DNA of 15,494 nucleotides from a virus, in the UHGV virus genome UHGV-0123274. One strand, 5' to 3'. A program made the position numbers and the translations under genes. This document shows positions 3,096 through 7,588 of the stretch, in pieces. Under the pieces are notes generated by a model. It worked only from the letters and a program-made list of their open reading frames with translations. It was not told where the DNA came from and did no database searches. How positions within the stretch are numbered: position 1 is the stretch's first letter; each line of letters starts with the position of its first letter.

Positions 3096-4532
3096 TCAGA
3101 ATCCCCCTTTCTTCTTGGACTGCGGTTCCTTGCGTTCACGGCGGCGAATTTCAGCAGACTGTTGGTCTGTGTCATAAATAGCGCCATTTGCCTGAATGCA
3201 ATACACCGTACCGGTATTGCCATGACGATTGAGACGAAGGATTAGTTCGGTTTCACCAGGTGGAACACTGTCATCAAAAGCGCCTTCACGATGGATCCCA
3301 ACCCAATAATCGCAATCCTGTTCAATCTGCCCTGTATCTCGTGAGTCACTTGGTAATGGGCGTTTATTGGTTCGGCTTTCCAGTGCGCGGTTAAGCTGCG
3401 TCAGAAGCACAACAACGCAATCAAGCTCTTTGGCAAGGTTCTTCAGTCCTTTGGTGATCATGCCGTAAGCAAGGTCGTTGCGATCGGCCTTCTCAGCGGT
3501 CATTAGTGTCAGGTAATCGACCAGAATCATGCCAACACATCCTTTTTCTCGCTTGATTCGACGGCTTTCGCTGACGATTTGAGCCAGAGATAATCCCGGC
3601 GTGTCGTCGATGTAAAGCATGTCGATTTCACTCAAGCGATTAGCTGTTTCGATCGCCCTGTTGAAGGCACCATCGTAATCACCCTGATAGCCGTCATCAG
3701 CGTCATTTGTCGCCGGAAGGTAAAAAATATTCGGGTTAACACCAGACTTCTGCCCTACCAGTTTTTCCAGTATCTGATCACCTGGCATTTCAAGGCTGAA
3801 CATCAAAGCGGGCTTTTTCTCATGCACTGCGCAATTGATTGCCATCTGGCTGTATAGCGTCGTTTTCCCCATCTTAGGGCGAGCGCCAATGACAAACAGA
3901 GAGCCTTTCACCAGACCTTTCGGTGACAGCATCCTGTCCAGCGATGGGATCCCTGTGCTCATTCCCCGTTGTTCGCCTGATGGGTCAAATCGCTTCTCAA
4001 GGTCGCTAACCCAGTCTTCCATGACCTCACCAAATGAACGAAGGCCGCGACGCGATCCGGTTTTTGCATGGTCTGTCAGTTGCGTGAAAATCGCCTGAAT
4101 AGCTTCGTACTTCTGCGTTGCAGTCATTCCGTTGCGGGAATAGAGCAATTCCGTCGCTTCAGTCATGCGGTTGATGGCGTAGCGTTCCATTGCGGTTTCA
4201 CGAACCTGCATTGCATAGGCAACGATGTTTGCTGCGCTTGGCGTGTTCTTTGCGATCTCAGCGATATAAGCAAAACCGCCAACAGACGCCGTTAACGATT
4301 TACGCTCCAGTTCATCGAAAAGCGTCAGGCCATCTACTGGCTTTTGCTCCCGGTGCATTCTGGTTATTTCTTCGAAAAGGATTTTGTGTGGTCGGCCGTA
4401 AAATGAATCAGGCTTCAGCATCGCCAGAACTTTCCGGACGCGCTCACTGCTGTCATCATCCAGAAGCAATCCACCAATCACCGCCTGCTCTGCCTCGATG
4501 CTATGGGGCGGCGCATAAAAATTATCGGTCAT
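3096..4532 (-). CDS. DnaB-family replicative DNA helicase
   Basis: 478 aa from ATG at 4532 (GAGGG RBS); Walker A GARPKMGKT and DnaB-like N-terminal region; overlaps the stop of the O-like gene. Confidence 0.9.
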   Translation of the reverse strand: MTDNFYAPPHSIEAEQAVIGGLLLDDDSSERVRKVLAMLKPDSFYGRPHKILFEEITRMHREQKPVDGLTLFDELERKSLTASVGGFAYIAEIAKNTPSAANIVAYAMQVRETAMERYAINRMTEATELLYSRNGMTATQKYEAIQAIFTQLTDHAKTGSRRGLRSFGEVMEDWVSDLEKRFDPSGEQRGMSTGIPSLDRMLSPKGLVKGSLFVIGARPKMGKTTLYSQMAINCAVHEKKPALMFSLEMPGDQILEKLVGQKSGVNPNIFYLPATNDADDGYQGDYDGAFNRAIETANRLSEIDMLYIDDTPGLSLAQIVSESRRIKREKGCVGMILVDYLTLMTAEKADRNDLAYGMITKGLKNLAKELDCVVVLLTQLNRALESRTNKRPLPSDSRDTGQIEQDCDYWVGIHREGAFDDSVPPGETELILRLNRHGNTGTVYCIQANGAIYDTDQQSAEIRRRERKEPQSKKKGGF

Positions 4533-5421
4533 CGTGTTCACCCTCACGAACTTTCAGGTAGGTATTATCGTTAAGCAGGAAATCAAATCCCTTTTTGTGC
4601 CAGACGGTTCCGCGCTGATGGTTTGGGCGCTCTTCGAACATCCATCGGCAATTTTCGCCTACGTAGCTCAAATAATTTCTCCAGTCCTGCATCGTGAAAC
4701 CATGCCCGTCAAGCTGTCGGGTTATCACTCCGGCTTTGCGCCAGAACGTTCGGATCTGGTTTTTACGCTTGTCATTCAGTGCGCGGATTCTTGGCGCTTC
4801 AGGAAGGATTTCGTGGTAAGCATCGACAACATCCTGACAGCTGACGGAAGGTTTTTTCTTGTCAGACTTTTTGTCTGCTGTGGCACTCTCTAATACGTCA
4901 GTATTAGAGATAATATTATTATATTCTTTATCTGTGGTAATTTGCTGGTAATCTGCTGGTACAGTATTGCTTGCAGGCATTGGTATTGCTGGCTTTGAGG
5001 TGGTAATTTGCTGGTAATCTGCTGGTACAAAATTTGACTGATAATCGTCATATTTCTCTACCGAGAAAACTGAGAATTTACCGTGTGAAACCCAGTCAAT
5101 CATGCCGAGTTTTTTGAACTTTCTAAGCAGGTACTGAACGCGATCTGGTTTGAGTCCTGTTTCAAACGCCAGAGTATTTCTACCGCCAAGTAGCTTCCCT
5201 CTGCCTACCAGAATTTCTCCTGCGTCAGTCATTACATACTCAGGCGTATGCTTTGCTTTGAGGATTAAGTGAACCCACAGATGCGCAGTTTCTGCGTCCT
5301 TGTAAAACGGCACATCCATAATTTTACGGTGCAGCAAGGCATACCCCTTACCGCTGCTTTGATGCGGTTGTTGTAGCCTTCTGGCCTCTCTGGCTTCGGC
5401 TAGATTAGATATGTTACTCAT
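4522..5421 (-). CDS. Replication initiator, lambda O-like (contains origin iterons)
   Basis: 299-aa ORF with AAGGAG RBS; sits between cII and helicase; internal tandem peptide [10 protein letters not shown] x2 coded by DNA iterons. Confidence 0.8.
4900..5040. repeat. Origin-like iteron array plus adjacent AT-rich tract inside the O-like gene
   Basis: 30-bp direct repeat gtggtaatttgctggtaatctgctggtaca at 4934..4963 and 5000..5029, built from shorter ggta(a/t)t..gc sub-repeats; AT-rich tract at 4900..4930 downstream in O direction, as in lambda ori. Confidence 0.65.
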
Positions 5422-5560
5422 GACCTTTCTCCTTCTGCATCAGCTTCACTTTTTCCAACTCAGCCCGGAATCGACCAGGCTGCTTGAAGCTGGACAGGAA
5501 GCGATCACGTAGTATGTGTTTGTGAATTTTGTCCTGGTAAGGACTGAGTTGTTTTGTCAT
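5414..5560 (-). CDS. Small 48-aa ORF between cII and O, translationally coupled to O
   Basis: ATG at 5560 preceded by AGGAG 5 nt upstream; product [48 protein letters not shown]; stop overlaps the O start. Not in the ORF track (below its length cutoff). Confidence 0.4.
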
Positions 5561-5594
5561 AATGACTCCTGTTGATAGATCCAGTCTTTCTACA

Positions 5595-5873
5595 TCAGGC
5601 CTCGAAGAATTCGCCGTTCTTCGGGGCTTTTTCTTTTGTCAGCATTCTGGCTACTTTCTTAGCCAGTTCCGCCAACTCCTCGTCTTCAACACCCCATTCA
5701 AGAACAGCCAGAAGCATTCCCATTTTTGGGATGAAGCTGTCTTTCCATCGCGAAATTTGCGATTCATTAATCCCTAACGCGTCGGCAACCTTTCGCTGAC
5801 CACGTACAGCAATTCGATTCAGGATGTTGCTTGTAATTGCATTCGCTTTCTTGCGAGTACTTGTAAGTTGCAT
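5595..5873 (-). CDS. cII: CII transcriptional activator
   Basis: Motifs QISRWK, IPK and [10 protein letters not shown] match lambda CII; true start taken as ATG at 5873 (AAGGA RBS) because the longer track ORF would cover the nutR site. Confidence 0.85.
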
Positions 5874-5930
5874 ATGTAAGTATTTCCTTAACAAATAAGA
5901 AGTTATGCGCATCAAATTATGCGCGTTGTA

Positions 5931-5975
5931 TTCCCGCATTTCGGCGGGAATGAGGACCATGACTGTTAAAGAGCG
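5931..5975 (-). promoter_or_regulatory. nutR-like antitermination site (boxA plus boxB hairpin)
   Basis: Minus strand reads CGCTCTTTAACA (boxA consensus) then hairpin uucccgc-cgaaau-gcgggaa; located directly downstream of cro, as in lambda. Confidence 0.6.
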
Positions 5976-5983
5976 GGTACTGC

Positions 5984-6202
5984 TTAGGCGGCTTTGTTAC
6001 TGGATGGAGGGAAAACATCATCCAAAGAACATTGGCACCCTAACTTCCTGAGGCCTTCTACGATCATTCGGCAATCGTTAAGGCCAGGAGTACGGATATT
6101 CAGCTCATAGTTGGCGATGCGGGATTGCCCCCAACCAATTGCTGAAGCTAGTACAGCTTGCGAAACTCCGATTTTTTTTCGCTGCTGGGCAATTTTGTTC
6201 AT
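5984..6202 (-). CDS. cro: Cro-like repressor (XRE-type helix-turn-helix)
   Basis: 72 aa from ATG at 6202 with AGGGAG RBS; HTH segment IGVSQAVLASAIGWGQSRIANYE; divergent from cI. Confidence 0.8.
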   Translation of the reverse strand: MNKIAQQRKKIGVSQAVLASAIGWGQSRIANYELNIRTPGLNDCRMIVEGLRKLGCQCSLDDVFPPSSNKAA

Positions 6203-6219
6203 TGCGGTCTCCCTAGCAT

Positions 6220-6305
6220 TAATCACACACCCATTACACACAATTTGTGATTAACAGTCAACCTCAATTCGTGTACAGAGTTCAATCACGTTGCGTGTTA
6301 CATTT
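6220..6305. promoter_or_regulatory. oR operator region with pR (minus strand) and presumed pRM (plus strand)
   Basis: pR: -35 TTGACT (6256..6261) with 17-bp spacer and -10 TGTAAT (6233..6238) on minus strand; palindromic CACA..TGTG-type sites, one (acacaatttgtgatt) near-identical to a site in oL. Confidence 0.6.
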
Positions 6306-6310
6306 AAGGG

Positions 6311-6958
6311 ATGAAAACGATGCATGAAATTATCGGGGAAAGGATCAAGTCCCTTAGAGAAGCTAAAGGACTTAGCCAGGCTCAATTGGCCAAGCTTTGC
6401 GGCTGGGCTGCGCCTTCACGCCTGGGGAACTACGAGTTAGGAACAAGAAAGGTTAGCGCGGATGACGCGCTGGTTCTTGGGGCGGCACTCGGCGTATCTC
6501 CGGCAAAAATAATGTTTGGCGAGGATTCAGACGCCGTATTTCGCCAATATGAATACCCGTTATTTTCTTCAGTGCAGGCCGGGCCATTTTCGGAGGTGGG
6601 AAGCTACACAGCCAGCGATGCAAAGGCATGGGTCCCAACGACCACAAAAGCCAGCGAAAAAGCTTTCTGGCTTGAGGTGAAGGGGCATTCAATGACGGCG
6701 CCTCAGGGGGTTCGTCCAAGTTTTCCGGAAGGCATGCTGATACTCGTTGATCCGGCTGAGCCGGTAGAGTCTGGGGATTTCTGCGTGGCTTCTGCAAATG
6801 GTGATTCAGAGGCAACGTTCAAGAAGTATGAGAAGGATGCAGGGGTTAGTTACCTGGTACCTTTAAACCCGGCATATAGAACACTGGATTGCGACCATAG
6901 CTGCCGCATCATAGGCAAGGTAGTTAAGGCGCAGTGGCCTGAAGAGACGTTTGGCTGA
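6311..6958 (+). CDS. cI: CI-type prophage repressor (N-terminal HTH, C-terminal S24 LexA-like autopeptidase domain)
   Basis: 215 aa; [15 protein letters not shown]; Ala-Gly cleavage candidate in VQAGPF; Ser in GHSM and Lys in TFKKY; C-terminus AQWPEETFG resembles lambda cI as recalled. Confidence 0.9.
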
Positions 6959-7108
6959 TCGGCAAGGTGTTCTGGTCGGCGCATAGCTGGTGAAAAAATT
7001 ATTTAATGCGGTGTATTGGCTGATTGTAACCCCATGTAACATCTTGCCGTCACCATTTCGGTGGTTAGATTTTTAATAAAAAAAAACAAATGTATAGCAA
7101 GGTTTTTT

Positions 7109-7588
7109 ATGGATAAAATTAATTACCCACCCCTGTTTGAGCCAGGGTTCCATGACATGGATGAAGCTGGATTAAAATCGTATTGTGTCGATTGCTTTCC
7201 TTCATCATCCAGGCGAGGCATGCTATACTGTAATTTTATACAGCTACTCGAATCTATTCGAGAATTATCTGCTCAATATGGCTGTTTTACAGAAATATGG
7301 GTTGATGGTTCATACACCACGTCTAAACCAGAGCCTGATGATATTGATATTTTGTTGGTATGTGACTATAGCAATATAAACTCAATACCTGTCATGCTTC
7401 GGGGCCGCGTCGATAATTTGCTTGACCGAAACTACATCAAACAAAACTACAAAATTGATGTCCTACTACTCATGAAGAATTTAGATGACCCTAACTATGA
7501 TTATGAGTACTGGCGTAGCTACTGGCGCGGTTGGTTTGGTTTTGATCGCAGTGAAAACCCGAAAGGGTTAGTGAGGATTTTTTTATGA
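7109..7588 (+). CDS. Minimal nucleotidyltransferase-fold protein (Pol-beta superfamily), 159 aa; first gene of rexAB-position cassette
   Basis: Motif VDGSYTTSKPEPDDIDILLV fits the GS-x9-DxD signature (compare LFGSYARG...SDIDLLV in MNT proteins); ATG at 7109 preferred over GTG at 7061; visibly AT-rich. Confidence 0.65.
   Translation: MDKINYPPLFEPGFHDMDEAGLKSYCVDCFPSSSRRGMLYCNFIQLLESIRELSAQYGCFTEIWVDGSYTTSKPEPDDIDILLVCDYSNINSIPVMLRGRVDNLLDRNYIKQNYKIDVLLLMKNLDDPNYDYEYWRSYWRGWFGFDRSENPKGLVRIFL

Follow-up and report, generated by a model that had tools for sequence, protein, structure and literature searches.

The 48-codon open reading frame at positions 5414–5560 of the minus strand of the analysed viral DNA (15,494 nucleotides in all, hereafter the window) belongs to the DUF2740 family, and we judge it probable that it is a genuine translated gene, coupled to the replication initiator gene that it overlaps, whose peptide is also under selection. 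In the mechanism that we propose, this gene, orf48, would stand first among the cistrons of the replication module, within the pR operon of a lambdoid prophage, and would use the strong, accessible translation-initiation region that in lambda serves O, within DNA that would also carry the pO −10 element and the oop 5′ end on the other strand. The initiator start would be sequestered in a predicted helix with orf48 codons 18–22; ribosomes translating orf48 would open this helix and reach their stop codon 5 nt beyond the initiator AUG, which would couple initiator synthesis to their passage. The product, a 5.8-kDa basic protein (pI ~10) predicted to form a two-helix hairpin, is under selection and, occurring only beside modules that encode their own helicase, probably has a trans-acting accessory role in replication. 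Coupling alone does not account for selection on the amino-acid sequence.

On its minus strand the window contains a lambdoid-prophage early-right operon with the gene order cro, cII, orf48, a gp18-type initiator gene and a DnaB-type helicase gene. Inspection of the sequence places the ATG of orf48 at 5560–5558 and its TAA stop codon at 5416–5414, enclosing 48 sense codons, and its Shine–Dalgarno sequence AGGAG at 5566–5570, 5 nt ahead of the ATG with the spacer TCATT (5565–5561) in between. The upstream neighbor on the same strand is a cII-type activator gene of 92 codons (5595–5873; Pfam Phage_CII, E = 1.8e-42). Downstream, the gene of a P22 gp18-type replication initiator of 299 amino acids (4522–5421, minus strand; PHROG 345, E = 5.9e-87) begins with an ATG at 5421–5419 inside the last codons of orf48 (AAA GGT CAT GAG TAA), 8 nt being common to both frames (ATGAGTAA). 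The initiator gene contains origin iterons as direct repeats at 4934–4968 and 5000–5034, and the O gene of HK620 has an annotated rep_origin. The third gene of the module encodes a DnaB-type replicative helicase of the P22 gp12 type (3096–4547, minus strand; Pfam DnaB_C, E = 9e-60, and DnaB, E = 1.4e-30). The preliminary description of this DNA had reported the AGGAG 5 nt before an ATG at 5560, the 48 codons and a stop codon overlapping the start of the O-like gene, all of which proved exact. It had also called the ORF unlisted, which is true of the gene list it worked from, but the ORF is annotated in HK620, phage L/P22, Stx2 phage 86 and RefSeq E. coli genomes. As 42 ORFs of at least 30 amino acids overlap positions 3500–7500, a size of 48 codons alone is not significant; what lifts orf48 above chance is its Pfam homology together with a frame that is kept in related loci.

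The only Pfam match of the ORF is DUF2740 (PF10872), with E = 8.9e-29 and 99.4 bits against a cut-off of 27, extending over profile positions 1–43 of 43. Many P22-like and lambda-like phages carry this small gene between cII and the initiator gene. It is annotated as hkaW in HK620 (‘similar to HK022 gp53’), as ‘orf48 in P22’ in phage L and as orf66 in Stx2 phage 86. Using positions 5380–5640 as a megablast query yielded matches in 159 phage records; 1008 of 5426 complete RefSeq E. coli genomes have a match, the label among the matches listed being ‘DUF2740 family protein’ (PGAP), so that this 48-amino-acid protein is carried by about one fifth of the complete E. coli genomes. The window ORF has the position typical of the family, directly upstream of and overlapping the initiator gene and following cII/oop, and the order cII–orf48–initiator–helicase recurs in HK620, phage L, Stx2 phage 86 and the divergent members. 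It likewise has the family's ~48 codons with HKxILRDRFL and a second conserved motif, and at K3, K14, I16, D19, R20, L22, E34 and E36 the family alignment shows no variation.

Several other identities were considered and rejected. The peptide matches the HMM of PHROG 1913 (‘tail protein’; E = 2.7e-28), but at 48 amino acids it is small, and in every locus examined it was located between cII and the replication genes, within the early-right operon; the label, which has been passed on to several RefSeq phage records, is almost certainly an annotation error, and in practice the ‘tail protein’ assignment spread by PHROGs and RefSeq is to be distrusted. A truncated lambda O (Phage_rep_O) is likewise rejected, similarity being absent after codon 3 and DUF2740 being the sole Pfam match. 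A likeness to lambda CIII seen by eye (LRD...QPG) has a different spacing and was treated as coincidence; P22-like phages carry a c3 of their own. An accessory-gene screen from 2025 uses the name gnarl1/‘orf48’ as an index number for a lytic-phage protein that is unrelated (ATI16509.1), and the supplements of that screen are without the DUF2740 motif. Searches of NCBIfam and PADLOC returned no match for the peptide. The literature on DUF2740 and hkaW yielded nothing beyond Hayes et al. 2012, and a functional study of the peptide was not found in it. Databases and literature thus already contain the gene, along with its position and the breakpoint relative to lambda.

To assess the conservation of the frame, we used 228 homologous loci from IMG/VR, GTDB genomes and phage records, which contain 56 different DNA sequences encoding 25 different peptides. 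The ORF has exactly 48 codons in 225 of the 228 loci, and 29 of the 55 variable columns among the 56 distinct DNA sequences fall on third codon positions, whereas in nearly every variant each of the other reading frames is interrupted by stops. The pooled pN/pS, taken as a proxy of dN/dS, was 0.32 overall and ~0.18 in codons 11–40. Within this core pS was 0.28, a normal value, versus 0.10 in codons 1–10, where synonymous change is suppressed, consistent with the presence of pO on the other strand. At the other end of the ORF, the final 13 columns do not vary among the 56 unique sequences. An SD-like GGAG/GAGG motif is found at the proper distance in several contexts, even with unrelated upstream DNA, and is weaker in a few. 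The most divergent members, of 46–50 amino acids and ~50–60% amino-acid identity, retain HKxILRDxFL and, more loosely, the E/K-rich motif of the second helix. Three divergent members follow cII or another early gene and overlap the initiator by 8, 8 and 4 nt; in two of them (L231 and L232) a DnaB helicase follows, where the contig extends that far.

An HMM scan of 1.84 billion representative proteins returned this small family, fragments and spurious repeat proteins only, and among these representatives the family is essentially one 50% cluster. A 152-amino-acid match in the profile search is a cII–DUF2740 read-through and not informative as a fusion. As the family is young and narrow, some of the conservation is due to shared ancestry only.

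The preliminary description had held that a reading frame not conserved in related phages would speak against its proposal; the frame is conserved, in 225/228 loci and with a core pN/pS of 0.18. Judged from these sequence comparisons, orf48 is a genuine gene with a frame that appears to be conserved for its product. The same data make it very improbable that the ORF is untranslated and conserved merely for DNA or RNA elements, namely pO and the oop start, mRNA structure and the ribosome-binding site of the initiator. Such elements fit the low pS of the first ten codons overlapping pO, the last 13 nt, which are the initiator start region, and the RNA helices predicted over part of the ORF, but they do not explain why the central 30 codons combine a normal pS with little non-synonymous change, nor the exact frame length, the SD-like motif kept at the right distance where the pO/oop DNA is replaced, or the frame and motifs kept by the distant homologues.

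The DNA around the orf48 start is shared with lambda. A block of 33 nt at 5553–5585 of the minus strand, containing the oop 5′ end, the pO −10, the SD sequence and ATGACAAA, is identical to lambda at 33 of 33 positions (ACTGGATCTATCAACAGGAGTCATTATGACAAA, window 5585–5553) up to lambda base 38693 and diverges from the next base, placing the 5′ mosaic boundary at ~5552, directly after ATGACAAA. The resemblance to the lambda O translation-initiation region, followed by divergence, to which the preliminary description had pointed proved exact, and the mosaic junction it had proposed at the lambda O start was confirmed by alignment. The junction is already contained in Hayes et al. 2012 (PMC3349717), who describe a 33-bp block conserved among lambdoid phages with a breakpoint at lambda base 38694, draw the general layout as cII-oop-‘orf’-O-P and treat lambda as the phage without this gene. 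The published reading is hence the opposite of the preliminary one: it is lambda that lacks a gene.

Homology with lambda also places a pO −10 hexamer, CATAAT, at 5558–5563 of the plus strand, preceded by TGT as an extended −10; on the opposite strand the orf48 ATG overlaps it. By position it corresponds to lambda 38684–38688, the lambda pO −10 mutated by Hayes et al. 2012 (PMC3349717). A terminator scan identified a 14-pair stem at 5597–5629 with the U-rich tail TTTCTTTTGT on the plus strand, pointing to an oop-like antisense RNA at 5571–5640 (plus strand, ends inferred) that would overlap the cII 3′ end. Both parts of an oop/pO unit are thus present, the terminator antisense to the cII 3′ end and the pO −10 over the next start codon. 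A consensus promoter scan of 5300–6000 called no promoter and did not recover pO, so the pO assignment rests on homology, and an Rfam scan of the window matched no family. Further into orf48, codons 6–10 form a small invariant hairpin (GUCCU-UACC-AGGAC; 5531–5544, minus strand) with five pairs and one broken cell in 94 sequences, which on the other strand covers the presumed P22-type pO −35 (TGGTAA). OOP RNAs have been detected in BTP1 and P22, both with orf48 homologues, and it is on these RNAs that the presumed activity of a P22-type pO rests. The pO promoter of lambda attenuates transcription from pR and has an effect on replication (PMC3985674), which makes the placement of the orf48 start over pO potentially relevant.

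At its other end orf48 is bounded by a second joint. The 15-nt sequence AAAGGTCATGAGTAA (5414–5428, minus strand), comprising the orf48 codons K-G-H-E-stop as well as the initiator spacer and ATG AGT AA, is essentially invariant, with one G variant among 226 loci. The 8-nt overlap is kept in 224 of the 226 loci, which supports the earlier proposal that the ORF is placed for translational coupling to the initiator, and the sequences diverge directly after ATGAGTAA. This 3′ mosaic boundary, right after 5414, is also apparent from megablast matches, some of which end exactly at the orf48 stop and continue with a different initiator, while others begin only after cII, with a different cII. The upstream genes of the orf48 loci form seven clusters. 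Downstream, two unrelated initiator families are found, the lambda-O type (Phage_rep_O) in 133 loci and the gp18 type in 88 loci including the window; both begin with M-S-N, because these codons lie in the overlap. Peptide variant and initiator family assort independently, with a normalised mutual information of 0.04; for initiator and helicase the value is 1.0, a perfect linkage. Peptide–initiator co-evolution was thus looked for in these loci and not found, arguing against a specific contact between the two proteins. With joints on both sides and independent assortment, orf48 is a module of its own that is swapped as a unit between two recombination joints, and these two fixed flanking joints provide a clean example of lambdoid module exchange at short conserved linkers.

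The preliminary description had interpreted the ORF as a functionless leader left when a foreign initiator was joined behind the lambda O start, of which only the translation matters. A leader would fit the position of the 5′ breakpoint, which does coincide with the start of lambda O, the conserved overlap with the start of the initiator, and the unrelated small ORF that occupies the same slot in HK97. A pure leader should keep length and frame only, however, and the core pN/pS of 0.18 and eight invariant residues of a DUF2740 protein exceed this expectation. Nor is there a tie to a foreign initiator, as lambda-O-type initiators follow orf48 more often than the gp18 type (133 versus 88 loci), and the mosaic boundaries on both sides and the mutual information of 0.04 describe an independently moving module. 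We therefore regard a leftover of an initiator graft as unlikely.

The reading that we favor, a translated gene coupled to the initiator with a selected peptide, draws on a predicted mRNA structure. In the MFE fold and with RNAalifold, a 5′ arm formed by orf48 codons 18–22 (CGUGAUC..UU.CU; 5496–5509, minus strand) pairs with a 3′ arm containing the SD region and start codon of the initiator (GG.GA..GGUCAUG; 5419–5432, minus strand). The mRNA from 5580 to 5380 folds more stably than shuffled sequences (z = −2.73), and the mean unpaired probability is 0.28 for the initiator SD–AUG region, compared with 0.52 for the orf48 start and 0.50 for the lambda O start. Among 94 distinct sequences analyzed with RNAalifold, the 7-bp core of the helix is intact in 94/94 but invariant, and therefore cannot show covariation, whereas two compensatory changes occur in the pairs beside it, one from UG to AU (21 sequences) and one from CG to UA (17 sequences). 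Pairing between the equivalent codons and the initiator start is still possible in each of the three members that have diverged furthest, with U·G pairs changed to C-G; two of the three carry a single A·C mismatch. An alignment of 13 sequences including the divergent members has 93.7% of its cells paired versus 37–57% in slid registers, a contrast inflated by the structure having been derived from the same sequences; four pairs have changed on both sides, and the covariation score was reached in 0 of 500 shuffles.

In the 5′ arm, R18 is always CGT and D19 always GAT, whereas the unpaired third base of R20 varies. Variable synonymous sites are less frequent at paired (8/19) than at unpaired positions (20/27; Fisher p = 0.037), a difference confounded by the overlaps with pO and with the start codon. 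The initiator has a purine-rich SD sequence of its own, GGAG 7 nt before the ATG, and could start independently of orf48. Covariation support for a helix that would mask the initiator start is thus moderate, and translation of the initiator is probably coupled to that of orf48; the case for coupling is likewise moderate, given a core helix unable to covary, a structure obtained from the very sequences on which it was assessed, a confounded test of synonymous sites and an initiator equipped with an SD.

The orf48 product is a protein of 5.8 kDa with a pI of 10.1, a net charge of ~+6 and no hydrophobic or transmembrane segment. The AF2 model consists of two helices, residues 7–23 and 28–44 (mean pLDDT 79.6), forming a generic hairpin for which Foldseek returned no match in the PDB or BFVD. 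Where the third gene could be classified, it was of one of three kinds in 207 of 207 loci: gp12-type DnaB in 84, a second DnaB type in 74 and, in 49, a Toprim protein with an intein interrupting its P-loop. Further loci have an HNH endonuclease (6) or an unrelated 613-amino-acid protein (1) after the initiator, and none of these orf48 loci contains a lambda-P-type loader. Conversely, of the 80 loci that a search with lambda P retrieved, 0 had a DUF2740 homologue, with divergent peptides also used as queries, though these controls are nearly identical O–P modules and represent one lineage; in most of the 80, O opens directly at the shared start site. As the control set is essentially one lineage, the tie of DUF2740 to helicase-encoding modules, and never to lambda-P loaders, is suggestive only and could be linkage. 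Genomic context is the one lead to a function, and going by it and by the selection on the peptide, the product is probably a trans-acting accessory in replication. The gene has been carried along in a lambda/P22 hybrid (Hayes et al., PMC3349717) and in a P22 phagemid (Owen et al.), and a P22 recombineering interval containing orf48 was described as not required for prophage maintenance.

These properties could also be read as the peptide alone being important, as a trans-acting accessory in loading of the phage helicase or acting on a host replication protein, with the overlap reflecting compact packing without regulatory meaning. We consider this a minority possibility, but one with some weight, given the purifying selection on the core, the motifs kept in distant members, the strict slot before initiator and helicase with absence from lambda-P modules, the initiator's own SD and the basic, soluble nature of a protein without transmembrane segment. 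Compact packing would not, on the other hand, account for a joint AAAGGTCATGAGTAA that is near-invariant even at synonymous sites and common to two unrelated initiator families, or for an initiator start that is predicted to be buried. The peptide type does not track the initiator family, and the unrelated HK97 gp53 in the same slot with the same architecture suggests a position-dependent role.

More speculatively, and in our estimate rather doubtful, DUF2740 (and HK97 gp53 by analogy) might be a two-in-one device, combining an RNA-structure gate on the initiator output of the pR transcript, beside the convergent pO, with a hairpin protein acting in trans on helicase recruitment or a host factor. 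If true, this would explain the absence of DUF2740 beside lambda-P-type loaders. The comparative data yield a concrete hypothesis that is cheap to test, in which orf48 translation gates that of the initiator and the gene is tied exclusively to helicase-encoding modules.

Among known systems, P22 orf48, HK620 hkaW and Stx2 phage 86 orf66 are closest, being alike in family, in their 48 codons, in the slot between cII/c1 and the initiator and in the 8-nt overlap. HK620 shares 98% nucleotide identity with the window over the region. The 33-nt upstream block is lambda-identical in the window, whereas HK620 and P22 differ at 3–4 positions. What the window has in common with lambda itself is the SD sequence, the ATG with the 5 nt that follow, a pO −10 lying on the start codon and an oop-type terminator over the end of cII. 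In lambda, however, this start site opens O directly, while in the window it opens orf48, with the initiator following 140 nt further on, and the sequence has diverged at the pO −35, which by our own reading is TGGTAA in the window compared with TTGAGT in lambda.

HK97 gp53, a 53-amino-acid ORF between cII and O, occupies the same slot and uses the same translation-initiation region, its first ~11 codons being alike at the DNA level; both it and orf48 carry TACCAGGA, the presumed pO −35. Its overlap with a lambda-type O amounts to 14 nt, a DnaB-type helicase lies downstream, and in the HK97 mRNA the initiator start is likewise predicted to be buried (z = −3.68, unpaired probability 0.33). Beyond residue 11, in contrast, the gp53 peptide is unrelated to DUF2740 (hhalign probability 0.8%, no Pfam match). 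Two unrelated peptides within one architecture argue for a position-dependent role, while the purifying selection on DUF2740 argues that the peptide matters, too.

In classical translational coupling, known from operons and RNA phages, stop and start codons overlap and the downstream start is masked by mRNA structure. The arrangement of orf48 is similar, with a stop codon 5 nt past the initiator AUG and an initiator SD/AUG region predicted to pair with the upstream coding sequence. Coupling is read here from the sequence, and orf48 differs from these classical examples in having a conserved product.

The two initiator families encoded downstream of orf48, the Phage_rep_O type and the gp18 type, share the amino terminus Met-Ser-Asn although they are unrelated. 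This common start arises because the initial codons of the initiator gene fall within the invariant overlap with orf48. Inspection of the initiator starts at L005, L031 and other loci, together with the corresponding positions 5413-5421 of the window, placed the mosaic joint directly after ATGAGTAA. Among the control loci carrying a lambda-P-type gene (within L235-L314), about 11 of 74 encode a longer O of 338-339 aa that begins with MTGSEMAKAGL… or a close variant, and their conserved start block is replaced by a different upstream sequence. In these loci the junction between cII and O takes a third form.

The 48-aa orf48 protein itself (5414-5560, minus strand) is labelled 'tail protein' by PHROG 1913 as well as by several RefSeq phage records (NC_002730, NC_019723, NC_011802 and others). 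As orf48 is located between cII and the replication genes, in the early operon, this label is likely a propagated annotation error. The DUF2740 family, to which orf48 belongs, also includes variant gene calls: a 152-aa cII-DUF2740 read-through product (P0058), presumably originating from a frameshift or mis-assembly, a 58-aa form with a duplication internal to the peptide (P0001) and a 54-aa form with the additional insert KLKLKLT (P0039). Assemblies from distant hosts also contain the peptide, at 94-100% identity to the form in E. coli: Shimwellia (L005), Candidatus Erwinia dacicola (L006) and Xanthomonas pisi (L007). The last of these is a contig of 386 nt, which looks like contamination rather than genuine host range.

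In the window, a cI-type repressor of 215 aa (6311-6958, plus strand) is adjoined on the same strand by a 175-aa ORF (7061-7588), a repressor-adjacent position in which accessory or exclusion genes are frequent in prophages.

At L071 and 48 similar loci, the gene 3' of the lambda-O-type initiator encodes a Toprim domain and then a P-loop (…GVNGHGK|C), the latter being interrupted by an intein with Hint and LAGLIDADG domains; the locus sequence stops short of the remainder of this partner protein. At L047 and five loci like it, the initiator gene is immediately followed by a gene for a NUMOD4/HNH homing endonuclease of 164 aa, in the place that the helicase gene takes elsewhere in the collection.

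Within the O-like gene of the window, GTGGTAATTTGCTGGTAATCTGCTGGTAC is present as direct repeats at 4934-4968 and 5000-5034, with an 11-nt unit as building block and PADYQQITT as the encoded repeat peptide. These repeats are probable origin iterons, since they are the counterpart of the rep_origin that is annotated within O of HK620.
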